Below are positions 9,363 through 43,236 of a DNA stretch of 64,000 bases, piece after piece. How positions within the stretch are numbered: position 1 is the stretch's first letter; each line of letters opens with the position of its first letter. The stretch comes from Nemertoderma westbladi (Eukaryota > Animalia > Xenacoelomorpha), in the NCBI GenBank assembly GCA_032718475.1, contig JAUCBJ010002774.1, forward strand, positions 1 through 64,000, in the 5' to 3' direction. The notes beneath the pieces were generated by a model that was not told the DNA's origin, did not search any database, and saw only the letters and a program-made list of their open reading frames with translations. The translations under genes were made by a program, and so were the position numbers.

Positions 9363-9588
9363 ATGTATTTATATAACCTGACTCTGCAACGGGCAACTGG
9401 AATAACTCATGCAATTCATGGAAACTTTAGTGGAACTAAACACCAGGAGATTGTCATTTCCCGGGGAAAAATCATCGAGTTGTTGAAACCGGACACAAAC
9501 ACTGGTAAACTGTATACACTGCTGAGTGTAGAAGTGTTCGGAATAATTCGTACTTTAATGCCATTCCGACTGACAGGGGCAAACAAAG
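9363..9588 (+). CDS. SF3B3: Splicing factor 3B subunit 3 (SAP130/Rse1), coding exon 1
   Basis: MYLYNLTLQRATGITHAIHGNFSGTKHQEIV...FRLTGANK matches the SF3B3 N-terminus. Donor AAG|GTAAAC, phase 1. Confidence 0.95.
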
Positions 9589-10509: not shown

Positions 10510-10680
10510 ATTACATTGTATGCGGTACCGATTCAGGACGAATATCTATTCTAGAATACGACGCTAAAAAGAATGTGTTTGAAAAAGTTCATCAAGAAAC
10601 TTTCGGGAAAAGTGGCTGTCGACGAATTATTCCGGGACAACATCTGGCGGTCGATCCTAAAGGGAGAGCCTTGATGCTTG
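10510..10680 (+). CDS. SF3B3: SF3B3 coding exon 2
   Basis: TTTTAG acceptor; [17 protein letters not shown]...[30 protein letters not shown]; donor TTG|GTAGGT. 171 nt, phase 1-1. Confidence 0.95.
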
Positions 10681-12620
10681 GTAGGTGGGGTAACTGGAAG
10701 GTGTGGTACATGGTAGGTGTGGTACATGGTAGGTGTGGTACCTGGTATGTGTGGTACCTGGTAGGTTTGGTACATGGTAGGTGTGGTACATGGCAGGTGT
10801 GGTACATGGTAGGTGTGGTACCTGGTATGTGTGGTACCTGGTAGGTTTGGTACTTGGTAGGTGTGGTACATGGTAGGTGTGGTACCTGGTAGGTTTGGTA
10901 CATGGTAGGTGTGGTACATGGTAGGTGTGGTACATGGTAGGTGTGGTACCTGGTAGGTTTGGTACATGGTAGGTGTGGTACATGGTAGGTGTGGTACATG
11001 GTAGGTGTGGTACATGGTAGGTGTGGTACATGGTAGGTGTGGTACATGGTAGGTGTGGTACCTGGTATGTGTGGTACCTGGTAGGTTTGGTACATGGTAG
11101 GTTTGGTACATGGCAGGTGTGGTACATGGTAGGTGTGGTACCTGGTATGTGTGGTACCTGGTAGGTTTGGTACATGGTAGGTGTGGTACATGGTAGGTGT
11201 GGTACATGGCAGGTGTGGTACCTGGTAGGTGTGGTACATGGTAGGTGTGGTACATGGTAGGTGTGGTACATGGTAGGTGTGGTACATGGTAGGTGTGGTA
11301 CATGGTAGGTGTGGTACATGGTATGTGTGGTACAGGGTAGGTGTGGTACATGGTAGGTGTGGTACATGGTAGGTGTGGTACATGGTAGGTGTGGTACATG
11401 GTAGGTGTGGTACCTGGTATGTGTGGTACCTGGTAGGTTTGGTACATGGTAGGTGTGGTACATGGTAGGTGTGGTACATGGTAGGTGTGGTACTTGGTAG
11501 GTGTGGTACCTGGTATGTGTGGTACCTAGTAGGTTTGGTACATGGTAGGTTTGGTACATGGTAGGTTTGGTACCTGGTAGGTGTGGTACATGGTAGGTGG
11601 GGTAATTGGTATGTGTGGTACATGGTAGGTGTGGTACCTGGTATGTGTGGTACCTGGTAGGTTTGGTACATGGTAGGTTTGGTACATGGCAGGTGTGGTA
11701 CATGGTAGGTGTGGTACCTGGTATGTGTGGTACCTGGTAGGTGTGGTACCTGGTATGTGTGGTACCAGGTAGGTGTGGTACCTGTAAGTGGTACCAGGTA
11801 GGTGTGGTACATGGTAGGTGTGGTACAGGGTAGGTGTGGTACATGGTAGGTGTGGTACATGGTAGGTTTGGTACATGGTAGGTGTGGTACATGGTAGGTG
11901 TGGTACCTGGTAGGTGTGGTACCTGGTAGGTGTGGTACATGGTAGGTGTGGTACCTGGTAGGTGTGGTACATGGTAGGTGTGGTACATAGTAGGTGTGGT
12001 ACATGGTAGGTGTGGTACATGGTAGGTGTGGTACCTGTAAGTGGTACCAGGTAGGTGTGGTACCTGGTAGGTGTGATACATGGTAGGTGTGGTACATGGT
12101 AGGTGTGGTACCTGGTATGTGTGGTACCAGGTAGGTGTGGTACATGGTAGGTGTGGTACATGGTAGGTGTGGTACATGGTAGGGTTGGTACATGGTAGGT
12201 GTGGTACCTGGTAGGTGTGGTACATGGTAGGTGTGGTACATGGTAGGTGTGGTACATGGTAGGTGTGGTACATGGTAGGTGTGGTACCTGGTAGGTGTGG
12301 TACCTGGTAGGTGTGGTACATGGTAGTTGTGGTACCAGGTAGGTGTGGTACAGGTACCTGGTAGGTGTGGTACATGGTAGGTGTGGTACATGGTATGTGT
12401 GGTACATGGTAGGTGTGGTACTTGGTAGGTGTGGTACATGGTAGGTGTGCTACCTGGTAGGTGTGGTACATGGTAGGTGTGGTACATGGTAGGTGTGGTA
12501 CATGGCAGGTGTGGTACCTGGTAGGTGTGGTACCTGGTAGGTGTGGTACATGGTAGGTGTGGTACATGGTAGGTGTGGTACCAGGTAGGTGTGGTACATG
12601 GTATGTGTGGTACCGGGTAG
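10672..12620 (+). repeat. 16-bp satellite (TGGTACATG|GTAGGTG)n, block 1, starting at the SF3B3 exon 2 donor
   Basis: About 120 units with variants (CCTG, CTTG, GTATGT, GTTT). The first unit overlaps the exon end TGATGCTTG|GTAGGTG. Confidence 0.95.
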
Positions 12621-12723
12621 ATGAGTGTGTAGATTTCTTAAGCCCAGTGCTGACTGACTGCTTGGCCTACTGCTTGCCTACCGCTGTTACTGCTACTGAC
12701 CACAGGCTACTTTGATTTTGCAT

Positions 12724-15700
12724 ATGGGAAGGTGTTGTGGCTGCAATTTTACGTCGGGCAAATGCAAGACATGCGTTTGCGTTCGCGCAAAACGGGCCTG
12801 CGAAAACTGCGGTCCTGGTACAGCAGGGCGGTGCGAAAATCTATTCAGGAATGGTCATTCCTGTTCGCAGCCGACATCGTCGTCAACTGCTGACAACCAG
12901 GTGGCGCCGGCGCGCATATCTTCATCGCAACCGTTGGATCTTGACGTTAGGTCTCCAGATGAAACTCTAATTGATCTAGACTCGACCCTTGTTCCCAATG
13001 GGGCTGATCAAACAGACATCACAGCGTCTGACGTTGTGGTGAGCGAGGTCGTGGGATTCACAGCGGAGTTGAATGGCGCCGCAACGTCTACTGCACCCCC
13101 GTCAGGCGCCACCACGCCTTCGACGCCCCCATCAGTTGCCGCCATGTTTACGGCGCCCGCGTCAGGCGCCGCCATGTCTACGGCGCCCGCGTCAGGCGCC
13201 GCCGTGTCTACGGCGCCCGCGTCAGGCGCCGCCATGTCTACAACGCCCCCGTCGGACGCCGCCATGTCTACGACGCCCCCGTCAAGCGCCGCCATGTCTA
13301 CGGCGCCCGCGTCAGGTGTCGCCATGTCTACGACGCCCCCGTCAAGCGCCACCATGTCTACGACGCCCGCGTCAGGTGCCGCCATGTCTACGACGCCCCC
13401 GTCAAGCGCCGCCATGTCTACGACGCCCGCGTCAGGTGCCGCCATGTCTACGACGCCCCCGTCAAGCGCCGCCATGTCTACGACGCCCCCGTCAGGCGCC
13501 GCCATGTCTACGACGCCCCCGTCAGGCGCCGTCGCCGTCATGCCTACGACTCCCCCGTCTCGCGCCGTCCCCGACCTACCAGGATATCAACCCCGCGGCC
13601 TGGCGTTTAGTTGGAACGGAATACCCGGCGAGTTATTTGAAAGTCAATTAAAGGATGCGTATGACGAGGTTGTCCACTGGAAGCCGCATCTCTTCAATAT
13701 TCCTCGTACACAGGTCGGTCGGCAATTTATTTGCTCAATTACCAAACTTTTAAAGGCCTTCAGCGAGAAATCCAATCTAGAAGGGGTTGCTTTGCTAGCA
13801 GTTATGACAGCACCTAAACTACTATTACATGCCGCAGTCAAGGAACCAGATGGACATGGTGCCTTGGGTAGTATCAGCCAAACCCTTCGGAGACGACTCG
13901 AACTTTGGAACGAGGGCGACATTGGCGCTCTCTTAGACGAAGGGAGAGCACTCCAGGCCCGGAGTGTAGGAAATGGTGCTGTTAGGGTGGACTCTGATAA
14001 ACCCAGGAGGGACTTCGTGTCTCGGATGAACACGGGACGGATTTCCGCTGCAATGGATATACTAACGGATGGTAAGGGCGGTTCGGTTATGGGATTAACG
14101 GAATTGGTTGGGAATAAAACCGTTAAGGAGATCCTAAGGGAGAAACATCCAGCGCCTGCAAGTGTCGATCCGTCACTAATCGAATCAGCATGGGGGGACA
14201 CTGTCAGTTTTCACCCGGCAATTTTCGACGCGATTAGGGGTGAGGCAATTCTGTCCGCATCCCTCCACACTCGGGGAACACCTGGTCCATCTGGCATCGA
14301 CGCCGATGGATGGAGACGCATGCTTACGGCATTTGGATCCACATCAAACGACCTGCGAAACGCGGTGGCCGCGGTTACGAGACGCCTTTGTACCGAATAC
14401 GTTGACCCCAAGAGTATTTCCCCACTCAATGCATGTCGACTGGTGCCCCTGGATAAAACACCCGGCGTCCGACCGATTGGTGTAGGAGAAGTACTGAGAA
14501 GGATAATAGGGAAGTCGATAATGACATGTACCAGGGTAGACCTGGAAGCAGTGGCCGGTAATACCCAGTTGTGCGTGGGGCAGCTTGGAGGAATCGAGCA
14601 TGCCATTCATGCTTTGCGTGACCAATACAACACCACCGAGTGCGAAGGAATCCTATCGATAGATGCAACAAACGCATTCAATGCATTGAACAGACAACTC
14701 GCGTTGTTAAACATTAAACATGTATGTCCTGCATTGTCAACAGTCCTGGTGAACACCTATCGAGAACCAACCCCACTGTTCGTGGACAAAGAGATCATGT
14801 GGTCTGAGGAGGGTACCACCCAGGGAGATCCGCTCGCCATGGCAATGTATGGCTCTGGTACACTGCCAATGGTAAAGAACCTCGTAATGATAGGCGCACA
14901 GACCGTATCAGCGGAGAACGAGGGCAAGCAGTCCATGGAAACAATGGGTGCGGTTGGAGACCCAGGGGACAGACAGGCGGACCATGACTACCCATGCGGT
15001 GGAGACCAACAAAATGCCAATCGAAGGGGTGGTTCTCTCATCCAAAAATGGTTCGCAGACGATGGGAATGTCGCCGGCGGACTCATAAGGCTAAGAGAGT
15101 ACTGGGAGAAGGTCAATGAAATCGGTCCAGGGTATGGCTACTTCCCCAACCCGGTAAAATCCTATCTGATTGTAAAGGACGAGCACAGAGAGCAGGCTGA
15201 GAAGATATTTGCAGGAACCGGCATAAAATTGACTGATGGTCACAGGGTGCTAGGATCAGTTATTGGTTCAGAGAACGCATGCAACAAATTCATATTGGAG
15301 CGTGTTGACAAACTGTGTGAGCAATTGGCGCGATTAAACGAGTTCGCAGTTACTGCTCCCCATCCAGCATATAGTTGCCTCATAAATGGTCTACAGTCAA
15401 AGTCTACTTACCTCTCCCGAACCACCCCACATTTCGTAGATAACTTGGACAACGTGGAGAAATACATAGTGGACCACCTCATACCTACACTGACCGGACG
15501 GGCCCCTCCAGGCGAAATCGAGAGGAAGTTGCTCGCTCTTCCTGTAAGGGAGGGCGGCCTTGCAATATACCAACCACAGGACCTGCGGGAGAGTTACCAT
15601 TCATCGAGGAGGATCTGTGAACCTCTCGATTCCATCGGGGTCGGAACGGCCCGACCACGCGAGGCACAGAGGCTTATTGTACGTGAAGTGGTGGGGGAAA

Positions 15701-16569
15701 GGGAGGAGTACGTGAAAGCGAAGACGGCGGATGTAAACAGACAGTTGTCAGACGACTCCAAGTACCTCCGGGCACTAACACAGGAGAAAGGTGCTTCATC
15801 GTGGCTAACAGCCTTACCAATCCTCAAGTACGGGTTCGCCCTACACAAAACAGCATTTCGGGATGCCCTGTGCTTGAGGTATGGTTGGTTGCCACCAAAG
15901 CTCCCCTCCCACTGTGTATGTGGAGTTGCATTCTCCATCTCGCATTCGCTGCACTGTCCGACAGGGGGATACCCCAGTATTCGCCATAACGAGGTACGGG
16001 ACTATTTAGCTGAGTTGCTCAACGAGGTGGCCCATGACGTGGAGAGTGAACCCGGTCTACAACAAGTAGAGAGCGAGGAATTTCGGCTGGCGAGCACCTC
16101 AAGGGACCCGGATGCGCGGCTGGATGTAGCAGCGTGCGGGGTCTGGGGCGGGAGGTTCGAGAAAGTATACGTGGACGTAAAGATATTCAACCCGCTGTGC
16201 TCCTCTAACCCCCGTTCCATTTCGTCCGCGTATCAGAAGCACGAGAGGGAGAAACGACGAAAATACGAGGAGAGGATAAATGAGATCGAGCATGGAGGTT
16301 TCTGCCCGTTCATCATGGCTACCACAGGGGGCGCTAGCAGAAGCGCGCATGCGCTCATAAATCGAATATCGCTCCTCTCAGTCAAGCGGGATTCTCCCTA
16401 TTCGCAGACCGTGTCTCTCGTGCGGACGAAGTTAAACTTTGCCCTGCTGCGGTCCGCTCTAATGTGTCTGAGGGGCGCCCGCACACCAAAGACCCGGCGG
16501 TCCACACAATCGCTGAGGGAAACCGGTATCCTCTGCGCGGTAGCCGAAGGTCTGGAGGTGCGGGCGTAG
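12724..16569 (+). CDS. CRE-like ORF: Cys-rich N-terminus, 10-aa repeat linker, reverse transcriptase, zinc knuckle, restriction-like endonuclease
   Basis: GVRPIGVGEVLRR, IDATNAFN, GTTQGDPLAM, WFADD, LPVREGGL, ASSWLTALP, CVCG...HSLHC..GG...RHN, and RLDV...YVDVK...HEREKRRKY. No stop codons. First ATG at 12724. Confidence 0.9.
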   Translation: MGRCCGCNFTSGKCKTCVCVRAKRACENCGPGTAGRCENLFRNGHSCSQPTSSSTADNQVAPARISSSQPLDLDVRSPDETLIDLDSTLVPNGADQTDITASDVVVSEVVGFTAELNGAATSTAPPSGATTPSTPPSVAAMFTAPASGAAMSTAPASGAAVSTAPASGAAMSTTPPSDAAMSTTPPSSAAMSTAPASGVAMSTTPPSSATMSTTPASGAAMSTTPPSSAAMSTTPASGAAMSTTPPSSAAMSTTPPSGAAMSTTPPSGAVAVMPTTPPSRAVPDLPGYQPRGLAFSWNGIPGELFESQLKDAYDEVVHWKPHLFNIPRTQVGRQFICSITKLLKAFSEKSNLEGVALLAVMTAPKLLLHAAVKEPDGHGALGSISQTLRRRLELWNEGDIGALLDEGRALQARSVGNGAVRVDSDKPRRDFVSRMNTGRISAAMDILTDGKGGSVMGLTELVGNKTVKEILREKHPAPASVDPSLIESAWGDTVSFHPAIFDAIRGEAILSASLHTRGTPGPSGIDADGWRRMLTAFGSTSNDLRNAVAAVTRRLCTEYVDPKSISPLNACRLVPLDKTPGVRPIGVGEVLRRIIGKSIMTCTRVDLEAVAGNTQLCVGQLGGIEHAIHALRDQYNTTECEGILSIDATNAFNALNRQLALLNIKHVCPALSTVLVNTYREPTPLFVDKEIMWSEEGTTQGDPLAMAMYGSGTLPMVKNLVMIGAQTVSAENEGKQSMETMGAVGDPGDRQADHDYPCGGDQQNANRRGGSLIQKWFADDGNVAGGLIRLREYWEKVNEIGPGYGYFPNPVKSYLIVKDEHREQAEKIFAGTGIKLTDGHRVLGSVIGSENACNKFILERVDKLCEQLARLNEFAVTAPHPAYSCLINGLQSKSTYLSRTTPHFVDNLDNVEKYIVDHLIPTLTGRAPPGEIERKLLALPVREGGLAIYQPQDLRESYHSSRRICEPLDSIGVGTARPREAQRLIVREVVGEREEYVKAKTADVNRQLSDDSKYLRALTQEKGASSWLTALPILKYGFALHKTAFRDALCLRYGWLPPKLPSHCVCGVAFSISHSLHCPTGGYPSIRHNEVRDYLAELLNEVAHDVESEPGLQQVESEEFRLASTSRDPDARLDVAACGVWGGRFEKVYVDVKIFNPLCSSNPRSISSAYQKHEREKRRKYEERINEIEHGGFCPFIMATTGGASRSAHALINRISLLSVKRDSPYSQTVSLVRTKLNFALLRSALMCLRGARTPKTRRSTQSLRETGILCAVAEGLEVRA
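13075..13560 (+). repeat. 30-bp coding minisatellite inside the CRE ORF (AMSTTPPSGA)n
   Basis: GCCATGTCTACGACGCCCCCGTCAGGCGCC units, about 15 copies, in frame. Confidence 0.9.
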
Positions 16570-16720
16570 GCGAATGTGGGACTGGCTTACTTTTTTTTTA
16601 TTGGTGGAGGGTACTACACAATTCGATGGCCTAGTAAATTTATCTATCTTATGTCCAATGTGCAGAGCAGTATTATTGATATGAAAATATAAATAAACGT
16701 ACGATGTGTAAAAAAAAAAA

Positions 16721-19295
16721 ACCGGGTAGGTTTGGTACAGGGTAGGTGTGGTACCTGGTAGGTGTGGTACATGGTAGGTGTGGTACCTGGTAGGTGTGGT
16801 ACATGATAGGTGTGGTACCTGGTAGGTGTGGTACATGTTAGGTGTGGTACATGGTAGGTGTGGTACAGGGTAGGTGTGGTACCTGGTAGGTGTGGTACAT
16901 GGTAGGTTTGGTACATGGTAGGTGTGGTACATGGTAGGTGTGGTACCTGGTAGGTTTGGTACATGGTAGGTGTGGTACAGGGTAGGTGTGGTACATGGTA
17001 GGTGTGGTACCTGGTATGTGTGGTACCTGGTAGGTGTGGTACCTGGTAGGTGTGGTACATGGTAGGTATGGTACCGGGTAGGTGTGGTACCTGGTAGGTG
17101 TGGTACATGGTAGGTGTGGTACATGGTGGTAGGTGTGGTACTTGGTAGGTGTGGTACATGGTAGGTGTGGTACATGGTAGGTGTGGTACTTAGTAGGTGT
17201 GGTACATGGTAGGTGTGGTACCTGGTATGTGTGGTACTTCGTAGGTATGGTACATGGTAGGTGTGGTACATGGTAGGTGTGGTACCTGGTATGTGTGGTA
17301 CTTCGTAGGTGTGGTACATGGTAGGTGTGGTACATGGTAGGTGTGGTACATTGTAGGTGTGGTACCTGGTAGGTGTGGTACATGATAGGTGTGGTACATG
17401 GTAGGTGTCGTACATGGTAGGTGTGGTACATGGTAGGTGTGGTACATGGTGGTAGGTGTGGTACTTGGTAGGTGTGGTACATGGTAGGTGTGGTACATGG
17501 TAGGTGTGGTACTTGGTAGGTGTGGTACATGGTAGGTGTGGTGCATGGTAGGTGTGGTACCTGGTATGTGTGGTGCATGGTAGGTGTGGTACCTGGTATG
17601 TGTGGTACTTGGTAGGTGTGGTACATGGTAGGTGTGGTACATGGTAGGTGTGGTACATTGTAGGTGTGGTACCTGGTAGGTGTGGTACATGATAGGTGTG
17701 GTACATGGTAGGTGTCGTACATGGTAGGTGTGGTACCTGGTAGGCGTGGGACCTGGTAGGTGTGGTGCATGGTAGGTGTGGTATATGGTAGGTGCGGTAC
17801 ATGGTAGGTGTGGTACATGGTAGGTGTGGTACCAGGTAGGTGTGGTACATGGTATGTGTGGTACCGGGTAGGTGTGGTACCTGGTAGGTGTGGTACCTGG
17901 TATGTGTGGTACATGGTATGTGTGGTACCGGGTAGGTGTGGTACCTGGTAGGTGTGGTACATGGTAGGTGTGGTACATGGTGGTAGGTGTGGTACTTGGT
18001 AGGTGTGGTACATGGTAGGTGTGGTACATGGTAGGTGTGGTACTTGGTAGGTGTGGTACATGGTAGGTGTGGTACCTGGTATGTGTGGTACTTCGTAGGT
18101 GTGGTACATGGTAGGTGTGGTACCTGGTATGTGTGGTACTTCGTAGGTGTGGTACATGGTAGGTGTGGTACATGGTAGGTGTGGTACATTGTAGGTGTGG
18201 TACCTGGTAGGTGTGGTACATGATAGGTGTGGTACATGGTAGGTGTCGTACATGGTAGGTGTGGTACCTGGTAGATGTGGTACCTGGTAGGTGTGGTACA
18301 TGGTAGGCGTGGGACCTGGTAGGTGTGGTGCATGGTAGGTGTAGGTGTCCTGCCTGCCAAGTACCTAACTGATCTAGACTTTGCTGATGACTTAGGAGTA
18401 CTCTCAGAATCACTAGAGGGAGCCCAACGGCTCCTCAGCTCATTAGAACATGCTGCTTCTAGTGTTGGTCTTTTTATTAACTCCAGAAAGACCAAAATTT
18501 TGACAGTTAACTTTGAAAGTCCTCAGCAAGTCTCTGATCGGATGAGCATAAGCTCAAAGGATGGTATGCTTGAGCATGTGGATGACTTCTGTTACCTGGG
18601 ATCATGGATCCGGAAAGTCAGGCGAGGACCTTCGAATACGTAAGGGAAAGGCATGGGCAGCCTTAAATAGGCTTTCCAGGATTTGGAAGTCACCGAGAAT
18701 TAATCGGAAACTTAAGGTCCGGTTATTTAGAGCAGCAGTAGTTCCAGTACTCCTCTATGGGAGTCTATGCTGGGCTCTAACTGCTGAGGACACCAAATCT
18801 CTGGATGGCACATTCACAAGAATGCTACGCCGGGTTCATTGTGCCAAGTTCAATGCACACATCTCCAACATGGTGGGGTACATGCACATGGCAGGTGTGG
18901 TACGTGTTAGATGTGGTACCTGGTAGGTGTGGTACATGGTAGGTGTGGTACTTGGTAGGTGTAGTACATGGTAGGTGTGGTACATGGTAGGTGTGGTACC
19001 TGGTAGGTGTGGTACATGGTAGGTGTGGTACATGGTAGGTGTGGTACATGGTAGGTGTGGTACATTGTAGGTGTGGTACCTGGTATATAGGTGTGGTACA
19101 TGGTTGGTGTGGTACATGGTAGGTGTGGTACTTGATAGGTGTGGTACTTGATAGGTGTGGTACTTGGTAGGTGTGGTACATAGCTGTGGTACAAAGATGT
19201 AGTACAGCTGGTAGGTGTTGTACCTTGTAGGTGTGGTATATGTAAGGTGTGGTACGTGTTGTTAGATGTGGTACCTGCCTGGTAGGTGTGATACA
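16721..19295 (+). repeat. 16-bp satellite, blocks 2-3 (interrupted by an RT fragment; degenerates after ~19100)
   Basis: Same GTAGGTGTGGTACATG unit resumes after the CRE poly(A). Confidence 0.93.
18353..18869 (+). mobile_element. Internal fragment of the RTE-like LINE, near-identical to 33960-34474(-), with one frameshift
   Basis: PAKYLTDLDFADDLGVLSESLEGAQ...YLGSWIRK / RKGKAWAALNRL...HISN. Extra A in CGGAAAGTCA (~18614). No tail and no TSD seen. Confidence 0.88.
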
Positions 19296-19599
19296 TGTTA
19301 TATGTGTTATATCAAAAGTCAGTATATATTTAATGATTTCAAGATAACTGGCAACATATAAGAAACTTAGCAAACCAATGTGCTTCAAACCGCAACAAAT
19401 TCTGTAATACACTGAAAGCAGAAGATAGGATGGAAATTCCTATGTCAAATGGGGACAATCTAGTTGGTCATTATAAAAACCGTTTCAGTCTCTTAGATTA
19501 TTGGGCCTTGGATAGGACTCTTAGATTGAATGATTTGAGAGATCTCCAATGTGTTTCAATGCAAAAAGTTTCGATGTATAAAGTGCTATACTCACACCT

Positions 19600-22611: not shown

Positions 22612-22784
22612 GCGCAGTTGAGAAACAGAAACTCGTCTACATATTGAATCGCGATAGCGAGGCGAGATTGACAATCTCCTCGCCCCTGGAGGCCCATAAA
22701 GCCAATACCATCATCTACTTTACTCTGGGGGTAGATGTTGGGTTCGACAATCCAACGTTCGCCACTCTCGAGATGGACTATGAG
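22612..22784 (+). CDS. SF3B3: SF3B3 coding exon 3
   Basis: CTGTAG acceptor; [30 protein letters not shown]...[19 protein letters not shown]; donor GAG|GTGAGT. 173 nt. Confidence 0.95.
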
Positions 22785-25299: not shown

Positions 25300-25447
25300 G
25301 AAGCTGATAACGATCCATCTGGTGACGCAGCCCAGGTCAGCCAACAGAGTCTAACTTTCTACGAGTTAGATCTCGGACTCAATCACGTAGTCAGAAAGTA
25401 CAGCGAGTTGTTGGAAGAACGGGGGAATATGTTGATAGCAGTACCAG
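25300..25447 (+). CDS. SF3B3: SF3B3 coding exon 4 (not in the ORF track)
   Basis: TTCAG acceptor; EADNDPSGDAAQVSQQSLTFYELDLGLNHVVRKYSELLEERGNMLIAVP; donor CAG|GTGAGT. 148 nt, frame consistent with exons 3 and 5. Confidence 0.95.
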
Positions 25448-28400
25448 GTGAGTGAGTGTGGGAGAACGGGGGAATATGTTGGTAGCAGTACCAGGTGAGT
25501 GAGTGAGTGTGGGAGAACGGGGGAATAAGTTGGTAGCAGTACCAGGTGAGTGATTGTGGGAGAACGGGGGAATATGTTGGTAGCAGTACCAGGTGAGTGA
25601 TTGTGGGAGAACGGGGGAATATGTTGGTAGCAGTACCAGGTGAGTGAGTGTGGGAGAACGGGGGAATATGTTGGTAGCAGTACCAGGTGAGTGATTGTGG
25701 GAGAACGGGGGAATATGTTGATAGCAGTACCGGGTGAGTGAGTGTGGGAGATGGGGGAATATGTTGATAGCAGTACCAGGTGAGTGATTGTGGGAGAACG
25801 GGGGAATATGTTGGTAGCAGTACCGGGTGAGTGAGTGTGGGAGAACGGGGGAATATGTTGATAGTAGTACCAGGTGAGTGAGTGTGGGAGACGGGGGAAT
25901 ATGTTGGTAGCAGTACCGGGTGAGTGAGTGTGGGAGAACGGGGGAATATGTTGATAGCCAGTACCAGGTGAGTGAGTGTGGGAGAACGGGGTAATATGTT
26001 GATAGCAGTACCAGGTGAGTGAGTGAGTGTGGGAGAACGGGGGAATATGTTAGGTAGCAGTACCAGGTGAGTGAGTGTGGGAGAACGGGGTAATATGTTG
26101 ATAGCAGTACCAGGTGAGTGAGTGAGTGTGGGAGAACGGGGGAATATGTTAGATAGCAGTACCGGGTGAGTGAGTGTGGGAGACGGGGGAATATGTTGGT
26201 AGCAGTACCAGGTGAGTGATTGTGGGAGAACGGGGGAATATGTTGATAGCCAGTACCAGGTGAGTGAGTGTGGGAGAACGGGGGAATATGTTGATAGCAG
26301 TACCGGGTGAGTGAGTGTGGGAGATGGGGGAATATGTTGATAGCAGTACCAGGTGAGTGATTGTGGGAGAACGGGGGAATATGTTGGTAGCAGTACCAGG
26401 TGAGTGATTGTGGGAGAACGGGGGAATATGTTGATAGCAGTACCGGGTGAGTGAGTGTGGGAGATGGGGGAATATGTTGATAGCAGTACCAGGTGAGTGA
26501 GTGAGTGTGGGAGAACGGGGGAATATGTTAGGTAGCAGTACCAGGTGAGTGAGTGTGGGAGAACGGGGTAATATGTTGATAGCAGTACCAGGTGAGTGAG
26601 TGTGGGAGAACGGGGGAATATGTTGATAGCAGTACCGGGTGAGTGAGTGTGGGAGATGGGGGAATATGTTGATAGCAGTACCAGGTGAGTGAGTGAGTGT
26701 GGGAGAACGGGGGAATATGTTAGGTAGCAGTACCAGGTGAGTGAGTGTGGGAGAACGGGGTAATATGTTGATAGCAGTACCAGGTGAGTGAGTGAGTGTG
26801 GGAGAACGGGGGAATATGTTAGATAGCAGTACCGGGTGAGTGAGTGTGGGAGACGGGGGAATATGTTGGTAGCAGTACCAGGTGAGTGATTGTGGGAGAA
26901 CGGGGGAATATGTTGATAGCCAGTACCAGGTGAGTGAGTGTGGGAGAACGGGGTAATATGTTGATAGCAGTACCAGGTGAGTGAGTGAGTGTGGGAGAAC
27001 GGGGGAATATGTTAGATAGCAGTACCGGGTGAGTGAGTGTGGGAGAACGGGGGAATATGTTAGATAGCAGTACCAGGTGAGTGAGTGTGGGAGAACGGGG
27101 GAATATGTTAGGTAGCAGTACCAGGTGAGTGAGTGTGGGAGAACGGGGGAATATGTTGGTAGCAGTACCGGGTGAGTGAGTGTGGGAGAACGGGGGAATA
27201 TGTTGTAGCAGTACCAGGTGAGTGAGTGTGGGAGAACGGGGGAATATGTTAGGTAGCAGTACCAGGTGAGTGAGTGTGGGAGAACGGGGGAATATGTTGG
27301 TAGCAGTACCGGGTGAGTGAGTGTGGGAGAACGGGGGAATATGTTAGATAGCAGTACCAGGTGAGTGAGTGTGGGAGAACGGGGGAATATGTTAGATAGC
27401 AGTACCAGGTGAGTGAGTGTGGGAGAACGGGGGAATATGTTAGGTAGCAGTACCAGGTGAGTGAGTGTGGGAGAACGGGGGAATATGTTGGTAGCAGTAC
27501 CGGGTGAGTGAGTGTGGGAGAACGGGGGAATATGTTGTAGCAGTACCAGGTGAGTGAGTGTGGGAGACGGGGGAATATGTTGGTAGCAGTGCCAGGTGAG
27601 TGAGTGTGGGAGAACGGGGTAATATGTTGATAGCAGTACCAGGTGAGTGAGTGAGTGTGGGAGAACGGGGTAATATGTTGATAGTAGTACCAGGTGAGTG
27701 AGTGAGTGTGGGAGAACGGGGGAATATGTTAGGTAGCAGTACCAGGTGAGTGAGTGTGGGAGAACGGGGTAATATGTTGATAGCAGTACCAGGTGAGTGA
27801 GTGAGTGTGGGAGAACGGGGGAATATGTTGATAGCAGTGCCAGGTGAGTGAGTGTGGGAGAACGGGGAATATGTTGGTAGCAGTACCAGGTGAGTGATTG
27901 TGGGAGAACGGGGGAATATGTTGGTAGCAGTACCAGGTGAGTGATTGTGGGAGAACGGGGGAATATGTTGGTAGCAGTACCAGGTGAGTGATTGTGGGAG
28001 AACGGGGGAATATGTTGATAGCAGTACCGGGTGAGTGAGTGTGGGAGATGGGGGAATATGTTGATAGCAGTACCAGGTGAGTGAGTGAGTGTGGGAGAAC
28101 GGGGGAATATGTTAGGTAGCAGTACCAGGTGAGTGAGTGTGGGAGAACGGGGTAATATGTTGATAGCAGTACCAGGTGAGTGAGTGAGTGTGGGAGAACG
28201 GGGGAATATGTTAGATAGCAGTACCGGGTGAGTGAGTGTGGGAGACGGGGGAATATGTTGGTAGCAGTACCAGGTGAGTGATTGTGGGAGAACGGGGGAA
28301 TATGTTGATAGCCAGTACCAGGTGAGTGAGTGTGGGAGAACGGGGTAATATGTTGATAGCAGTACCAGGTGAGTGAGTGAGTGTGGGAGAACGGGGGAAT

Positions 28401-31400
28401 ATGTTAGATAGCAGTACCGGGTGAGTGAGTGTGGGAGAACGGGGGAATATGTTAGATAGCAGTACCAGGTGAGTGAGTGTGGGAGAACGGGGGAATATGT
28501 TAGGTAGCAGTACCAGGTGAGTGAGTGTGGGAGAACGGGGGAATATGTTGGTAGCAGTACCGGGTGAGTGAGTGTGGGAGAACGGGGGAATATGTTGTAG
28601 CAGTCCAGGTGAGTGAGTGTGGGAGACGGGGGAATATGTTGGTAGCAGTGCCAGGTGAGTGAGTGTGGGAGACGGGGGAATATGTTAGATAGCAGTACCA
28701 GGTGAGTGAGTGTGGGAGGCGGGGGAATATGTTAGGTAGCAGTACCGGGTGAGTGAGTGTGGGAGAGCGGGGAATATGTTGGTAGCAGTACCGGGTGAGT
28801 GAGTGTGGGAGAACGGGGGAATATGTTAAGTAGCAGTACCGGGTGAGTGAGTGTGGGAGAACGGGGGAATATGTTAGGTAGCAGTACCGGGTGAGTGAGT
28901 GTGGGAGAACGGGGAATATGTTGGTAGCAGTACCGGGTGAGTGAGTGTGGGAGAACGGGGGAATATGTTAAGTAGCAGTACCGGGTGAGTGAGTGTGGGA
29001 GAACGGGGGAATATGTTAGGTAGCAGTACCGGGTGAGTGAGTGTGGGAGAACGGGGAATATGTTGGTAGCAGTACCGGGTGAGTGAGTGTGGGAGACGGG
29101 GGAATATGTTGATAGCGGTACCAGGTGGGTGAGTGTGGGAGACGGGGGAATATGTTGGTAGCAGTACCAGGTGAGTGAGTGTGGGAGACGGGGGAATATG
29201 TTGATAGCAATACCGGGTGAGTGAGTGTGGGAGAACGGGGGAATATGTTAGATAGCAATACCAGGTGAGTGAGTGTGGGAGACGGGGGAATATGTTGGTA
29301 GCAGTACCAGGTGAGTGAGTGTGGGAGATGGGGGAATATGTTAGATAGCAGTACCGGGTGAGTGAGTGTGGGAGACGGGGGAATATGTTAGGTAGCAGTA
29401 CCGGGTGAGTGAGTGTGGGAGAACGGGGGAATATGTTAGATAGCAGTACCAGGTGAGTGAGTGTGGGAGAACGGGGGAATATGTTGATAGCAGTGCCAGG
29501 TGAGTGAGTGTGGGAGAACGGGGGAATATGTTAGGTAGCAGTACCGGGTGAGTGAGTGTGGGAGAACGGGGGAATATGTTAGATAGCAGTACCAGGTGAG
29601 TGAGTGTGGGAGAACGGGGGAATATGTTGATAGCAGTGCCAGGTGAGTGAGTGTGGGAGGACGGGGGAATATGTTAGATAGCAATACCAGGTGAGTGAGT
29701 GTGGGGGACGGGGGAATATGTTGGTAGCAGTACCGGGTGAGTGAGTGTGGGAGAACGGGGGAATATGTTAGATAGCAATACCAGGTGAGTGAGTGTGGGA
29801 GACGGGGGAATATGTTGGTAGCAGTACCAGGTGAGTGAGTGTGGGAGATGGGGGAATATGTTAGATAGCAGTACCGGGTGAGTGAGTGTGGGAGACGGGG
29901 GAATATGTTAGGTAGCAGTACCGGGTGAGTGAGTGTGGGAGAACGGGGGAATATGTTAGATAGCAGTACCAGGTGAGTGAGTGTGGGAGAACGGGGGAAT
30001 ATGTTGATAGCAGTGCCAGGTGAGTGAGTGTGGGAGAACGGGGGAATATGTTAGGTAGCAGTACCGGGTGAGTGAGTGTGGGAGAACGGGGGAATATGTT
30101 AGATAGCAGTACCAGGTGAGTGAGTGTGGGAGAACGGGGGAATATGTTGATAGCAGTACCAGGTGAGTGAGTGAGTGTGGGAGAACGGGGTAATATGTTG
30201 ATAGCAGTACCAGGTGAGTGAGTGAGTGTGGGAGAACGGGGGAATATGTTAGGTAGCAGTACCAGGTGAGTGAGTGTGGGAGAACGGGGTAATATGTTGA
30301 TAGCAGTACCAGGTGAGTGAGTGAGTGTGGGAGAACGGGGGAATATGTTAGATAGCAGTACCGGGTGAGTGAGTGTGGGAGAACGGGGGAATATGTTGGT
30401 AGCAGTACCAGGTGAGTGATTGTGGGAGAACGGGGGAATATGTTGGTAGCAGTACCAGGTGAGTGATTGTGGGAGAACGGGGGAATATGTTGATAGCAGT
30501 ACCGGGTGAGTGAGTGTGGGAGATGGGGGAATATGTTGATAGCAGTACCAGGTGAGTGAGTGAGTGTGGGAGAACGGGGGAATATGTTAGGTAGCAGTAC
30601 CAGGTGAGTGAGTGTGGGAGAACGGGGTAATATGTTGATAGCAGTACCAGGTGAGTGAGTGAGTGTGGGAGAACGGGGGAATATGTTAGATAGCAGTACC
30701 GGGTGAGTGAGTGTGGGAGAACGGGGGAATATGTTAGATAGCAGTACCAGGTGAGTGAGTGTGGGAGAACGGGGGAATATGTTAGGTAGCAGTACCAGGT
30801 GAGTGAGTGTGGGAGAACGGGGGAATATGTTGGTAGCAGTACCGGGTGAGTGAGTGTGGGAGAACGGGGGAATATGTTGTAGCAGTCCAGGTGAGTGAGT
30901 GTGGGAGACGGGGGAATATGTTGGTAGCAGTGCCAGGTGAGTGAGTGTGGGAGACGGGGGAATATGTTAGATAGCAGTACCAGGTGAGTGAGTGTGGGAG
31001 GCGGGGGAATATGTTAGGTAGCAGTACCGGGTGAGTGAGTGTGGGAGAACGGGGAATATGTTGGTAGCAGTACCGGGTGAGTGAGTGTGGGAGAACGGGG
31101 GAATATGTTAAGTAGCAGTACCGGGTGAGTGAGTGTGGGAGAACGGGGGAATATGTTAGGTAGCAGTACCGGGTGAGTGAGTGTGGGAGAACGGGGAATA
31201 TGTTGGTAGCAGTACCGGGTGAGTGAGTGTGGGAGAACGGGGGAATATGTTAAGTAGCAGTACCGGGTGAGTGAGTGTGGGAGAACGGGGGAATATGTTA
31301 GGTAGCAGTACCGGGTGAGTGAGTGTGGGAGAACGGGGAATATGTTGGTAGCAGTACCGGGTGAGTGAGTGTGGGAGACGGGGGAATATGTTGGTAGCAG

Positions 31401-33626
31401 TACCAGGTGAGTGAGTGTGGGAGACGGGGGAATATGTTGATAGCAATACCGGGTGAGTGAGTGTGGGAGAACGGGGGAATATGTTAGATAGCAATACCAG
31501 GTGAGTGAGTGTGGGATACGGGGGAATATGTTGGTAGCAGTACCAGGTGAGTGAGTGTGGGAGATGGGGGAATATGTTAGATAGCAGTACCGGGTGAGTG
31601 AGTGTGGGAGACGGGGGAATATGTTAGGTAGCAGTACCGGGTGAGTGAGTGTGGGAGAACGGGGGAATATGTTAGATAGCAGTACCAGGTGAGTGAGTGT
31701 GGGAGAACGGGGGAATATGTTGATAGCAGTGCCAGGTGAGTGAGTGTGGGAGAACGGGGGAATATGTTAGGTAGCAGTACCGGGTGAGTGAGTGTGGGAG
31801 AACGGGGGAATATGTTAGATAGCAGTACCAGGTGAGTGAGTGTGGGAGAACGGGGGAATATGTTGATAGCAGTGCCAGGTGAGTGAGTGTGGGAGGACGG
31901 GGGAATATGTTAGATAGCAATACCAGGTGAGTGAGTGTGGGGGACGGGGGAATATGTTGGTAGCAGTACCGGGTGAGTGAGTGTGGGAGAACGGGGGAAT
32001 ATGTTAGATAGCAATACCAGGTGAGTGAGTGTGTGAGAACGGGGGAATATGTTGATAGCAGTGCCAGGTGAGTGAGTGTGGGAGATGGGGGAATATGTTA
32101 GATAGCAGTACCGGGTGAGTGAGTGTGGGAGACGGGGGAATATGTTAGGTAGCAGTACCGGGTGAGTGAGTGTGGGAGAACGGGGGAATATGTTAGATAG
32201 CAGTACCGGGTGAGTGAGTGTGGGAGACGGGGGAATATGTTAGGTAGCAGTACCGGGTGAGTGAGTGTGGGAGAACGGGGGAATATGTTAGATAGCAGTA
32301 CCAGGTGAGTGAGTGTGGGAGAACGGGGGAATATGTTGATAGCAGTGCCAGGTGAGTGAGTGTGGGAGAACGGGGGAATATGTTAGGTAGCAGTACCGGG
32401 TGAGTGAGTGTGGGAGAACGGGGGAATATGTTAGATAGCAGTACCAGGTGAGTGAGTGTGGGAGAACGGGGGAATATGTTGATAGCAGTGCCAGGTGAGT
32501 GAGTGTGGGAGGACGGGGGAATATGTTAGATAGCAATACCAGGTGAGTGAGTGTGGGGGACGGGGGAATATGTTGGTAGCAGTACCAGGTGAGTGAGTGT
32601 GGGAGACGGGGGAATATGTTGATAGCAGTACCAGGTGAGTGAGTGTGGGAGAACGGGGGAATATGTTGGTAGCAGTACCATGTGAGTGAGTGTGGGAGAA
32701 CGGGGGAATATGTTGATAGCAGTACCAGGTGGGTGAGTGTGGGAGAACGGGGTAATATGTTGATAGCAGCACCAGGTGAGTGAGTGAGTGTGGGAGAACG
32801 GGGGAATATGTTAGATAGCAGTACCGGGTGAGTGAGTGTGGGAGAACGGGGGAATATGTTAGATAGCAGTACCAGGTGAGTGAGTGTGGGAGAACGGGGG
32901 AATATGTTGATAGCAGTACCAGGTGAGTGAGTGTGGGAGAACGGGGTAATATGTTGATAGCAGTACCAGGTGAGTGAGTGAGGGTGGGAGAACGGGGGAA
33001 TATGTTAGATAGCAGTACCGGGTGAGTGAGTGTGGGAGAACGGGGGAATATGTTAGATAGCAGTACCAGGTGAGGGAGAACGGGGGAATATGTTGATATC
33101 AGTACCAGGTGAGTGAGTGTGGGAGAACGGGGGAATATGTTAGGTAGCAGTACCGGGTGAGTGAGTGTGGGAGAACGGGGGAATATGTTAGATAGCAGTA
33201 CCAGGTGAGTGAGTGTGGGAGAACGGGTGAATATGTTGATAGCAGTACCAGGTGAGTGAGTGTGGGAGGACGGGGGAATATGTTAGATAGCAATACCAGG
33301 TGAGTGAGTGTGGGGGACGGGGGAATATGTTGGTAGCAGTACCAGGTGAGTGAGTGTGGGAGATGGGGGAATATGTTGGTAGCAGTACCAGGTGAGTGAG
33401 TGTGGGAGAACGGGGGAATATGTTGGTAGCAGTACCAGGTGAGTGAGTGTGAGAGAACGGGGGAATATGTTGATAGCAGTACCAGGTGAGTGAGTGTGGG
33501 AGACGGGGGAATATGTTGGTAGCAGTACCAGGTGAGTGAGTGAGTGTGGGAGAACGGGGGAATATGTTGGTAGCAGTACCGGGTGAGTGAGTGTGGGAGA
33601 ACGGGGGAATATGTTGGTAGCAGTAC
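25413..33626 (+). repeat. 47-bp satellite GGAGAACGGGGGAATATGTTGRTAGCAGTACCAG|GTGAGTGAGTGTG, block 1
   Basis: About 175 units of 46-52 bp. The first unit is the last ~34 nt of exon 4 plus its donor. Confidence 0.96.
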
Positions 33627-35626
33627 TACTACTACTAGGATCGGCATGCTGCATTGCAGCTGCATTTTTAAGAATGCTGTGCCGGCTTGTCAACAAAATT
33701 GCACCGCCACAACTCCCTATCACCCATGACATTTGCTAGATCATCCGCATCTTTAAGGCCAGTGTCCTTTAAGATGCGTCTCAAGAAAGTCATGGGCTGT
33801 CCACCATGCTTATTCACTCCATGAGGCTGCCAAAGTACAAGATTATGCACTGGCTGGTCCTCACGGCGAAAGCAATGTCCTGCAAAGCGGAGGCGATTTT
33901 GTTCTAGTGTCAAGCTTGGGGGAACCAATGAGACACCTCCAATGTTATATAGTGTCTGGTTGGAGATGTGTGCATTGTACTTGACACAATGTACCCGGCG
34001 TAGCATTCTTGTGAATGTGCCATCCAGAGATTTGGTGTCCTCAGCAGTTAGAGCCCAGCATGGACTCCCGTAGAGGAGTACTGGAACTACTGCTGCTCTA
34101 AATAATCGGACCTTAAGTTTCCGATTAATTCTAGGTGACTTCCAAATCCTGGAAAGCCTATTCAAGGCTGCCCATGCCTTTCCCTTACGTATTCGAAGGT
34201 CCTCACCTGACTTCCGGATCCATGATCCCAGGTAACAGAAGTCGTCCACATGCTCAAGCATACCATCCTTTGAGCTTATGCTCATCCGATCAGAGACTTG
34301 CTGAGGACTTTCAAAGTTAACTGTCAGAATTTTGGTCTTTCTGGAGTTAATAAAAAGACCAACACTAGAAGCAGCATGTTCTAATGAGCTGAGGAGCCGC
34401 TGGGCTCCCTCTAATGATTCTGAGAGTACTCCTAAGTCATCAGCAAAGTCTAGATCAGTTAGGTACTTGGCAGGATTTCCTCGACTTCTGGAGCCAGTAG
34501 GTGGAGTTATCATCACCCCATCATCATTATGATGATCTAAGGACATGCGTAGAACATAGTCAACCACAATAATGAACAAGAATGGTGCAAGTGTGTCTCC
34601 TTGGAGGACGCCCCATAACACTTCAAATGGTTCTGTGTCACCGTCAACAGTAGACACAAATGTTGTCGAACCATCGTATACTGATCTGATTGCTGCAATA
34701 ATTTCATCAGGAATCCCATATAATGAAAGTATGCTGAACATACGTGAGCGAGAGACTGAATCAAAGGCCTTGAAGAAGTCAACAAAGATAACAGCCAGAT
34801 GCCTGTCTTTCTTTTTTGATAACTCTTCAATTATCCTTCTAAGTGCCAAAATGGGCTCCATGGTCCCACGACCTTTACGGAACCCATTCTGATTTCCACG
34901 TAGCAGTCTCTCAATGGGATCTCTGATGCGATTTAATAGAATTCTATTGTATAGTTTTGCAGCAATCGAGATCAATGAGATTCCCCGAAAAGAACCATAG
35001 AGTGTTAGGTTGCCCTTCTTGGGAACTGGCACCAACTTATTTGTTTTCATTTCTTGTGGGACTCTTGTTGTACGGTACATGTCTACTATGATGGGATAGA
35101 TGAGCTTTAAACACTCAGGTATTTTAAAGACCTCAGGGGGAACACCATCTACTCCACTGGCACGATTGGTCTTAATGCTCTTTGCAGCAGCCTTCACTTC
35201 TGCAAAGGAGATATCGCCAATGGGAATATCTGGGAGTACAGACTCAGACACTTTTACTTCTATAAAGTTATCAGGCAATACCCTGTCATTATTGAGGAGC
35301 TTTTCAAAGTGGGCTTTCCAACCATTAAGGCGATCGGCTGGTGATTCAGCCTTAACCTTGGTGGTTGGTTGGCTTTTCCGCCCAGTAAGCAGATTGATCG
35401 ATTTCCATGCCTGGGATGATTGCCTGCTGTCGTCAGCATCATTGATGGCATCAACCTGTTGGTTTATTAGCTCCTGTAGATTAACAGAGTACTGCCTGTT
35501 CAGGGACCTAGATGCAGCTTTAACTGTATTCTTGGCCGCTGTAGTCTGTTTGAGTCGGGACTCTTTCTGCGCCTTATGAAGGTCATTTCGGCACTTCTGA
35601 ATTTTTTTTTGAATTTTTGGAATAAC
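33627..35626 (-). mobile_element. 5'-truncated RTE-like LINE with an uninterrupted RT frame, inserted in the 47-bp satellite
   Basis: 13-bp TSD TTGGTAGCAGTAC at 33614-33626 and 35627-35639; (TAG)n 3' tail. ORF to 33668 has FRGISLISIAAKLYNRILLNR, QNGFRKGR, FVDFFKAFDSV, GVLQGDTLAPFLF, LDFADD, FCYLGS and RLRFAGHC. No endonuclease domain present. Confidence 0.9.
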
Positions 35627-36808
35627 TTGGTAGCAGTACCAGGTGAGTGAGTGTGGGAGATGGGGGAATATGTTGGTAGCAGTACCAGGTGAGTGAGTGT
35701 GGGAGACGGGGGAATATGTTGGTAGCAGTACCAGGTGAGTGAGTGTGGGAGAACGGGGGAATATGTTGATAGCAGTACCGGGTGAGTGAGTGTGGGAGAT
35801 GGGGGAATATGTTGGTAGCAGTACCAGGTGAGTGAGTGTGGGAGAACGGGGGAATATGTTGATAGCAGTACCAGGTGAGTGAGTGTGGGAGACGGGGGAA
35901 TATGTTGGTAGCAGTACCAGATGAGTGAGTGTGGGAGATGGGGGAATATGTTGGTAGCAGTAGCAGGTGAGTGAGTGTGGGAGAACGGGGGAATATGTTG
36001 ATAGCAGTACCAGGTGAGTGAGTGTGGGAGAACGGGGGAATATGTTGATAGCAATACCGGGTGAGTGAGTGTGGGAGAACGGGGGAATATGTTGGTACCA
36101 GTACCGGGTGAGTGAGTGTGGGAGAACGGGGGAATATGTTGGTAGCAATACCGGGTGAGTGAGTGTGGGAGAACGGGGGAATATGTTGGTAGCAATACCG
36201 GGTGAGTGAGTGTGGGAGAACGGGGGAATATGTTGGTAGCAATACCGGGTGAGTGAGTGTGGGAGAACGGGGGAATATGTTGGTAGCAATACCGGGTGAG
36301 TGAGTGTGGGAGAACGTGGGAATATGTTGGTAGCAGTACCAGGTGAGTGAGTGTGGGAGACGGGGGAATATGTTAGATAGCAGTACCAGGTGAGTGAGTG
36401 TGGGAGAACGGGGGAATATGTTAGATAGCAGTACCAGGTGAGTGAGTGTGGGAGAACGTGGGAATATGTTGGTAGCAGTACCAGGTGAGTGAGTGTGGGA
36501 GAACGGAGGAATATGTTGATAGCAGTACCAGGTGAGTGAGTGTGGGAGACGGGGGAATATGTTAGATAGCAGTACCAGGTGAGTGAGTGTGGTAGAACGG
36601 AGGAATATGTTGATAGCAGTACCAGGTGAGTGAGTGTGGGAGAACGGGGGAATATGTTAGATAGCAGTACCAGGTGAGTGAGTGTGGGAGAACGGGGGAA
36701 TATGTTGGTAGCAGTACCGGGTGAGTGAGTGTGGGAGAACGGGGGAATATGTTGATAGCAGTACCGGGTGAGTGAGTGTGGGAGAACGGGGGAATATGTT
36801 GATAGCAG
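35627..36808 (+). repeat. 47-bp satellite, block 2
   Basis: About 25 further units, ending ~330 bp before the exon 5 acceptor. Confidence 0.95.
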
Positions 36809-37142: not shown

Positions 37143-37249
37143 GCGGAGGCGATGGTCCCAGTGGGGTTCTTATCGGAGCGGAGAACTACATCACTTACAA
37201 AAACTTTGGCGACCAGCCAGATATCCGGATGCCAATACCTAGACGGCGG
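37143..37249 (+). CDS. SF3B3: SF3B3 coding exon 5 (not in the ORF track)
   Basis: TTTAG acceptor; GGGDGPSGVLIGAENYITYKNFGDQPDIRMPIPRRR; donor CGG|GTTAGT. 107 nt. Confidence 0.95.
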
Positions 37250-37295
37250 GTTAGTTTGTAGTTAAATACCTGGACGATGGATTAGTTTGTAGTTA
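37234..37295 (+). repeat. Two-copy 31-bp tandem duplication spanning the exon 5 donor
   Basis: AATACCTAGACGGCGG|GTTAGTTTGTAGTTA followed by AATACCTGGACGATGGATTAGTTTGTAGTTA (27/31 identical). Confidence 0.9.
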
Positions 37296-37440: not shown

Positions 37441-37537
37441 AATGATTTGGATGACCCCGACAGAGGAATGCTATTCGTTTCCTCGGCAACCCATAAAACC
37501 AAAGCCATGTTCTTTCTTCTGCTGCAAACTGAGCAAG
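37441..37537 (+). CDS. SF3B3: SF3B3 coding exon 6 (not in the ORF track)
   Basis: T-rich tract then CCAG acceptor; NDLDDPDRGMLFVSSATHKTKAMFFLLLQTEQ(G); donor AAG|GTTAGT. 97 nt. Confidence 0.95.
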
Positions 37538-38327: not shown

Positions 38328-38630
38328 TTACGATGGAGATATGAAAATGTAGTAAAGCAATGAAACTACTAGAATGCAGTAACGGTTGCTGTGAGTCTGG
38401 AGTGTGGGTGCGGCGCTGGGTTTGTTACACAACGTCGTCGCGCAACAGTTAGCCGAACAGATGTCGGCGTCGCCTCCCCCGTCGCCTAGGAACGGACCGT
38501 GTCCTTTGTTTTGTTCCACGCAACTGGTAACCAAGGAACACGGCGCTGGGGGTAGAGATGATTTCTCGCAATTCATCACGCTGACCACAGTTATCTCCCC
38601 GTTGGAGTTGCGTGAACGCATTGTTTGTTC
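38328..38630 (-). CDS. Ly6/uPAR (three-finger)-like GPI-anchored protein, last exon
   Basis: TTTCAG acceptor; EQTMRS...NCEKS...CSLVTSC...ICSANCCATTLCN (CCxxxxCN hallmark), then KPSAAP and a hydrophobic tail YCILVVSLLYYIFISPS* consistent with a GPI signal. Confidence 0.72.
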   Translation of the reverse strand, partial: EQTMRSRNSNGEITVVSVMNCEKSSLPPAPCSLVTSCVEQNKGHGPFLGDGGGDADICSANCCATTLCNKPSAAPTLQTHSNRYCILVVSLLYYIFISPS

Positions 38631-42000: not shown

Positions 42001-43236
42001 ACTCACTAACCACTATACTGCACTTCATATTAACTCACTAACCACTAGACTACACATTATATTAACTCACTAACCACTACACTACACTTCATATTAACTC
42101 ACTAACCACTACAACACTACATTTCATACTAACTCTCTAACCACTACACTACACTTCATATTAACTCACTAACCACTACACTACACTTCATATTAACTCA
42201 CTAACCACTACAACACTACACTTCATATTAACTCACTAACCACTACACTACACATTATATTAACTCACTAACCAACCACTACACTGCACGTCATATTAAC
42301 TCACTAACCACTACACTACACTTCATATTAACTCACTAACCACTACATTACACTTCATATTAACTCACTAACCACTACAACACTACACTTCATACTAACT
42401 CTCTAACCACTACACTACACTTCATATTAACCCAATAACCACTACACTACACTTCATATTAACTCACTAACCACTACAACACTACACTTCATATTAACTC
42501 ACTAACCACTACACTACACATTATATTAACTCACTAACCACTACAACACTACACTTCATACTAACTCTGTAACCACTACACTACACTTCATATTAACTCA
42601 CTAACCAACCACTACACTACACTTCATATTAACTCACTAACCAACCACTACACTACACTTCATATTAACTAACCAACCACTACACTACACTTCATATTAA
42701 CTCACTAACAAACCACTACACTACACTTCATATTAACTCACTAACCAACCACTACACTACGCGTCATATTAACTCACTAACCACTACACTACACTTCATA
42801 TTAACTCACTAACCAACCACTACACTACACGTCATATTAACTCACTAACCACTACACTACACATTATATTAACTCACTAACCACTACACTACACTTCATA
42901 TTAACTCACTAACCACTACAACACTACACTTCATATTAACTCACTAACCACTACACTACACATTATATTAACTCACTAACCACTACACTACACTTCATAT
43001 TAACTCACTAACCACTACACTTCATATTAACTCACTAACCATTACACTACACTTCATATTAACTCACTAACCAACCACTACACTACACTTCATATTAACT
43101 CACTAACCACTACACTACACATTATATTAACTCACTAACCACTAGACTACACATTATATTAACTCACTAACCACTACACTACACATTATATTAACTCACT
43201 AACCACTAGACTACACATTATATTAACTCACTAACC
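39035..43236 (-). repeat. 32-bp satellite (TTAATATGAAGTGTAGTGTAGTG|GTTAGTGAG)n starting at the donor of the Ly6-like gene
   Basis: About 130 units of CTCACTAACCACTACACTACACTTCATATTAA on the + strand. The array edge coincides with ACG|GTTAGTGAG at 43236/43235. Confidence 0.95.

Follow-up and report, generated by a model that had tools for sequence, protein, structure and literature searches.

Tandem repeats that copy an exon-intron boundary have been described in human genes and in amphioxus. Here we describe such a repeat in a stretch of 64,000 nucleotides from Nemertoderma westbladi (contig JAUCBJ010002774.1, positions 1 to 64,000 of the forward strand; hereafter the window), in which a 16-base-pair (bp) array begins at the exon 2 donor of the SF3B3 gene. 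The best studied relative is the 37-bp variable number tandem repeat (VNTR) of 5-9 copies in human F7 intron 7, where the most upstream donor alone is used; this persists when the later copies are strengthened to a consensus value of 91, and perfect sites do compete (PMC1557585). The junction minisatellites of IFI6 (6-16), CBS, LMNB2 and PDGF hold 10-25 donor copies, with two extra donors used in IFI6 and CBS and the first only in LMNB2 and PDGF (PMC1557585). In amphioxus, the so-called mirages repeat exon-intron boundaries in tandem at Adh3, globins, troponin C and PGBD5, with units of 10-160 bp (PMC3087553, PMC3902484); they leave the messenger RNA (mRNA) normal and have been proposed to be general in cephalochordates (PMC3087553). 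In plants and green algae, tandem repeats, mostly microsatellites, are enriched at intron ends (PMC3887541).

The SF3B3 array is a very large case of this known repeat type, the junction-spanning minisatellite (F7-type VNTR or amphioxus mirage). As in F7, the first unit lies over the exon-intron boundary, the donor is reiterated into the intron and the most upstream donor is used. Unlike F7, the SF3B3 array has about 245 copies instead of 5-9, its first unit is off the consensus, retroelements split it, and neighbouring donors are duplicated too. IFI6, CBS, LMNB2 and PDGF share its architecture at a copy number about 10 times lower, and the use of two extra donors, as in IFI6 and CBS, was not seen in the SF3B3 contigs. 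As with the amphioxus mirages, boundary copies occur at several loci of an invertebrate and leave the mRNA undisturbed. The globin mirages comprise 2-6 copies and include acceptors, whereas the arrays of this window run to 130-245 copies over 4-9 kilobases (kb) and lie at donors only, among 15 splice sites. Plant and algal repeats also sit near intron ends; in the accessible part of that account they are described without donor copies, unlike the SF3B3 array (PMC3887541). A literature search, thin on subscription journals, returned no published report of the SF3B3 array and no genome-wide invertebrate survey of donor-seeded arrays. Passages from PMC10078293, PMC12783039 and bioRxiv 10.1101/2025.10.14.682431 had nothing to say on donor copies.

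We propose, with a probability of roughly 0.8, that the SF3B3 transcript splices at the first donor, that the downstream donor copies are likely silent passengers, and that the array likely arose through duplication of the donor.

The 16-bp array at the exon 2 donor

Exons 1 to 6 of an animal SF3B3 gene lie in the window and together form one open frame of 307 residues. The last base of exon 2 is 10680 and the donor GT stands at 10681, from which the 16-bp unit is repeated head to tail in three blocks.

10510..10680, plus strand: SF3B3 exon 2; the first array unit is formed by its donor at 10681, and a contig of run X4 joins 10680 to exon 3
10679..12613, plus strand: 16-bp array block 1, about 121 units (Tandem Repeats Finder and register scan)
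16725..18342, plus strand: 16-bp array block 2, about 101 units (Tandem Repeats Finder and register scan)
18886..19297, plus strand: 16-bp array block 3, about 23 units, decaying (Tandem Repeats Finder and register scan)

A first-pass annotation of this DNA had counted about 245 units in three blocks. Tandem Repeats Finder confirmed this number (120.9 + 100.6 + 23.1 copies, 84-90% matches), as did the register scan, which found 247 donor-position sites with the real donor counted; GT is kept in 232 of the 247, i.e. in 231 of the 246 downstream. The first intronic unit, said to reappear nearly unchanged at about 11593, indeed has a near copy there with 15/16 identity. When the junction 16-mer was compared with the 246 other units, identity reached 14/16 in 16 units, 13/16 in 126 and 12/16 in 85.

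The array was likely seeded by duplication of a short stretch including the exon 2 donor. Its first unit lies on a genuine exon-intron boundary, as the donor at 10681 is used in an X4 contig and is also the first register position, and its 16-bp unit falls within the 10-160 bp of head-to-tail junction-spanning minisatellites. Within the window, no good copy of the 16-mer was found outside the array; two weak matches with 3 mismatches lie on the minus strand. Judged from sequence, the junction origin of the 16-mer would be grounded in the register from 10681, the want of good copies elsewhere in the window and the neighbouring duplicated donors. The suggestion of the first-pass annotation that the satellite copies the exon 2 donor region is thus upheld by the register start at the donor and by the lack of good copies elsewhere in the window.

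Between samples, letter differences were seen in the first two array units; the contigs are too short to span the array. Summed contig depth at the array starts was about 40-170 times that of the flanks, versus at least 10,000 times at a dispersed repeat near 44000, which fits a single-locus array, depth being no measure of copy number. The dispersed repeat itself (43950-44250) is of very high copy by contig depth in all four runs (X1 to X4).

Donor choice in the SF3B3 transcript

Run X4 was taken as RNA-derived only because its contigs hold GT..AG joints. In one X4 contig (3536 bases, depth 662), intron 1 is removed with GT..AG ends, and the sequence passes from the 10680/10681 boundary to the start of exon 3. 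X4 has no contig over 10700-10790, nor in 43383-43879 past the minus-strand middle exon described below, and neither stretch served as evidence. The exons that flank exon 2 are as follows.

9363..9588, plus strand: SF3B3 exon 1 (coding part); PF10433, homology and a GT..AG joint to exon 2 in the X4 contig
22612..22784, plus strand: SF3B3 exon 3; homology, with its first 30 bases joined to exon 2 in X4

The strength of the donor copies was scored by their match to the standard donor consensus. By Watson-Crick matches, 213 of the 231 downstream GT copies beat the real donor and the other 18 tie with it; when G-U pairs are counted, the commonest array copy ties with the real donor. Low-level leakage to later copies may occur, contigs being blind to rare forms. 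A recursive splice site needs a strong acceptor abutting a donor. The units do contain AG-GT, but with a weak pyrimidine tract: their AG is preceded by at most 7 pyrimidines in 14 bases, versus 9-12 at five real acceptors.

The first-pass annotation had further proposed that three of the copies offer in-frame alternative donors, and that all others shift the frame or include the stop.

10729..10830, plus strand: in-frame donor copies at 10729 (+48), 10777 (+96) and 10825 (+144); stop-free, with the read-through stop at 10842-10844
10698..10700, plus strand: unit 2 codon that is polymorphic: AAG in the window (where the +16 copy has no GT and the frame is open), TAG in sample S1

Translation agreed on both counts: the copies at +48, +96 and +144 keep the frame and meet no stop before the one at 10842-10844, and all the other copies translated, up to +416, shift the frame or include that stop. 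The proposed use of the three copies was not supported, given the exit of the X4 contig at 10680, a stop in unit 2 of sample S1 and 82 homologues without length change. The S1 contigs anchored in exon 2 (X3 record 19 and X1 record 2) carry T at 10698, which places an in-frame stop in unit 2, and therefore all three in-frame options are closed on that allele. Run X2 carries the same open allele as the window and may be the source of the window. The A at 10698 would remove the stop and the nearest out-of-frame donor copy together; because both go at once, the open frame would need no selection. Around the junction, the homologue pattern was matched in 82 of 120 homologues, all 82 of which have the same length in this part of the beta-propeller, and the site lies inside Pfam PF10433. 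AlphaFold models of 29 homologues gave a predicted local distance difference test (pLDDT) score below 50 across residues 108-165, including the junction, and were thus unusable for placing an insert.

Other duplicated donors and the inserted retroelements

Among the 15 splice sites examined in the window, 4 of 8 donors are duplicated, compared with 0 of 7 acceptors. The units at the three other duplicated donors are unrelated to the 16-mer.

25300..25447, plus strand: SF3B3 exon 4; homology only
25412..36808, plus strand: 47-bp array of about 195 units, the unit joining the final 33 bases of exon 4 to the opening 14 of intron 4; interrupted by a minus-strand reverse transcriptase (RT) element at about 33627-35618
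37143..37249, plus strand: SF3B3 exon 5; homology
37234..37295, plus strand: 31-bp segment spanning the exon 5 donor, in two copies; GT is lost from the second
39038..43235, minus strand: 32-bp array of about 130 units, starting exactly at the donor of the middle exon of a nested gene
43236..43336, minus strand: nested gene middle exon, with AG and GT ends; letters 221-324 of an X4 contig (839 bases) lie on 43235-43338

Because 33 coding bases of exon 4 are contained in the 47-bp unit, the junction origin of that array is proven, and its letters copy the junction more clearly than those of the 16-mer do. Counting the junction itself, exact matches to 45 bases of the real exon 4 boundary stand at five places in the window, and the reading frame closes two codons into the intron. 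The two-copy duplication at exon 5 is a possible seed stage of such an array. The G-skew of the three large arrays on the host sense strand is 0.66, 0.68 and 0.93, and the 16-, 47- and 32-bp arrays occupy 3963 of 11931, 9369 of 11695 and 4198 of 4605 bases of their host introns, respectively. A crude chance of 4e-4 was obtained for three of five arrays touching a junction, a figure that assumes the intron lengths of today and overstates the case. Two arrays with acceptor-like unit ends, one of 28 bp (48425-49200, minus strand) and one of 43 bp (50815-55621, plus strand), were not counted, since no exon could be tied to either.

The minus-strand gene that hosts the 32-bp array is small, cysteine-rich and presumably nested in SF3B3 intron 6. 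Its remaining exons are predictions.

38330..38630, minus strand: predicted last exon, cysteine-rich; open frame and acceptor, with a Pfam CD59 match only at E 0.83
46469..46538, minus strand: predicted signal-peptide exon, proposed from a scan

The predicted protein has a signal-like start and a hydrophobic end, and we take it to be Ly6/three-finger-like by motif; a Pfam search of the middle exon gave no match. The segment 48260-48430 was dropped as a candidate upstream exon, since by the contig overlap the upstream exon should end in AG. A pair of oppositely oriented 21-bp arrays lies at 45297-45496 and 45981-46449; the second begins about 20 bases past the predicted donor at 46468, which it excludes.

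Two retroelements interrupt the 16-bp array.

12621..16721, plus strand: non-long-terminal-repeat (non-LTR) retroelement with a 1289-codon open frame, a poly(A) tail and an 8-9 bp target duplication (12613-12620 and 16722-16729)
18353..18869, plus strand: retroelement fragment between blocks 2 and 3; over 517 bases it shares 97% identity with the element in the 47-bp array

The non-LTR retroelement of 4.1 kb is apparently full length; its relatives at 40-46% carry PF00078, and a Pfam search of its intact 1289-codon frame itself gave no match. As its target duplication shows, it is younger than the array, and the 517-base fragment appears to be younger as well. The 4.1-kb element contains an internal 30-bp repeat at 13075-13531, and its target duplication includes a donor copy. 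The fragment belongs to one RT element family with three copies in the window, 94-97% alike (18353-18869, plus; 33627-35618, minus; 57741-57871, plus), two of which lie inside donor arrays.

A PF10433 match spans SF3B3 exons 1-4, and the exon 1 protein is 75-83% identical to most SF3B3 proteins among the matches listed.

37441..37537, plus strand: SF3B3 exon 6; homology; the last SF3B3 exon found in the window

No SF3B3 exon beyond 37537 appeared among the tblastn matches listed for 7 full-length homologue queries, five of them with complete listings. Intron 6 would thus exceed 26 kb, or the assembly would be broken there, as no SF3B3 exon was found in 37538-64000 among those matches. Upstream of SF3B3, an open frame at 5505-6719 (plus strand) matches galactose-3-O-sulfotransferase (PF06990, E 2e-45).

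Mechanism, rival readings and meaning

A duplication covering the donor would be tolerated, as the first copy would keep exon and donor intact and the remainder would fall in the intron. The G-rich unit would then have expanded through ordinary minisatellite turnover, and the two retroelements would have inserted later and split the array. The spliceosome would take the most upstream donor, as in human F7, and transcripts leaking to later copies would in most cases run into a stop codon and probably be degraded. Three further donors in the window were likely duplicated in the same way, which would explain most of the length of two neighbouring introns. For the bias towards donors over acceptors, our guesses are tolerance of the upstream choice, or instability of the G-rich non-template strand during transcription.

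Several observations weigh against this account. The first-donor form is the only one in the X4 contigs, but it comes from one contig of one run, and contigs lose rare variants. Human IFI6 and CBS use the nearest two copies (PMC1557585), and the experiments on why the upstream donor is preferred used mammalian cells rather than this animal. The nine exon-side bases of the junction match the common unit tails at 6/9 and the CTTG tail at 7/9, a modest likeness. Moreover, the open run from the real donor measures 54 codons and is the longest of 243 unit starts, with a permutation p of 0.004 against the whole of block 1 and of about 0.05 (a hand estimate) when only the first nine units are shuffled.

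The modest exon-side likeness would suit a 16-mer that was an ordinary G-rich satellite, had arisen in or moved into the intron and resembled the junction by chance, the intron-side match being the array by definition. Of 914 exon 9-mers, 14 reach 6/9 against the CCTG tail, and so do 7 of the 56 9-mers ending in TG. The 14/16 likeness reported in the first pass stands as a number (16 units reach it), but it overstates the exon side, where 6-7/9 is all that matches, because seven of the matched bases are the array itself. With an exon-side likeness this modest, the junction origin rests mainly on the in-register start exactly at the donor. It is that start, together with the lack of a good copy elsewhere in the window and the three more donors duplicated with unrelated units, one of them holding 33 coding bases, that makes a chance resemblance very unlikely. 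A different proposal is that the arrays have been kept for a function: hundreds of U1-binding sites would shield long introns full of retroelements against premature cleavage and polyadenylation, or would serve stepwise intron removal. U1 is known to protect transcripts from such premature processing, the 231 GT copies match the consensus well, and block 1 is immediately followed by a sense-strand retroelement that carries a poly(A) signal and tail. Yet that retroelement is younger than the array, the arrays themselves make up most of the intron length and hence create the problem they would solve, and the pyrimidine counts given above leave no recursive acceptor evident. A literature search on U1 protection by such arrays found nothing, and we regard this function as improbable.

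The long open run bears on the remaining alternative, in which the in-frame copies serve as alternative donors and yield SF3B3 isoforms longer by 16, 32 or 48 residues, the frame being kept by selection, possibly only on the A-10698 allele. All three units able to put a stop in frame are non-stop variants, and the downstream copies equal or exceed the real donor in consensus match, as would suit such isoforms; for two of the three non-stop units, however, the spacing is part of a higher-order block found twice more deeper in the array, and the p value is post hoc, as the window was selected for this very feature. The use of nearby copies in IFI6 and CBS (PMC1557585) offers a precedent, to be set against the first-donor joint of the X4 contig. 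X2 has the open allele too, though possibly as the source of the window, and S1 has the stop in unit 2. An insertion at this site within PF10433 is missing from all 82 pattern-matched homologues, and a stop closes the frame within 2-6 codons at each of the three other duplicated donors. Such isoforms therefore have very little to recommend them, and it is even harder to credit that the A/T difference at 10698 switches longer in-frame forms on or off by allele. Splicing at the first donor, with the later copies as passengers, is the reading that we retain.

Taken as a single locus, the SF3B3 array is ordinary, because both its repeat type and the first-donor rule are already known. What it adds is size, as a core spliceosome gene here holds about 245 donor copies, and density, with 4 of 8 donors duplicated in one 64-kb window. 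Such arrays can also mislead gene predictors into false exon extensions during annotation. We put forward, tentatively and as somewhat less than an even prospect, that donors (and donors only) regularly seed kilobase-scale G-rich minisatellites throughout this genome, and that these arrays and the retroelements they have collected are a main source of intron length, raising it from a few hundred bases to 5-12 kb. If true genome-wide, this would provide a natural large-scale test of how the spliceosome chooses one donor among hundreds. If the density seen here holds across the genome, it would bear on intron growth and on why donors rather than acceptors amplify, and would supply many natural substrates for the study of donor choice.

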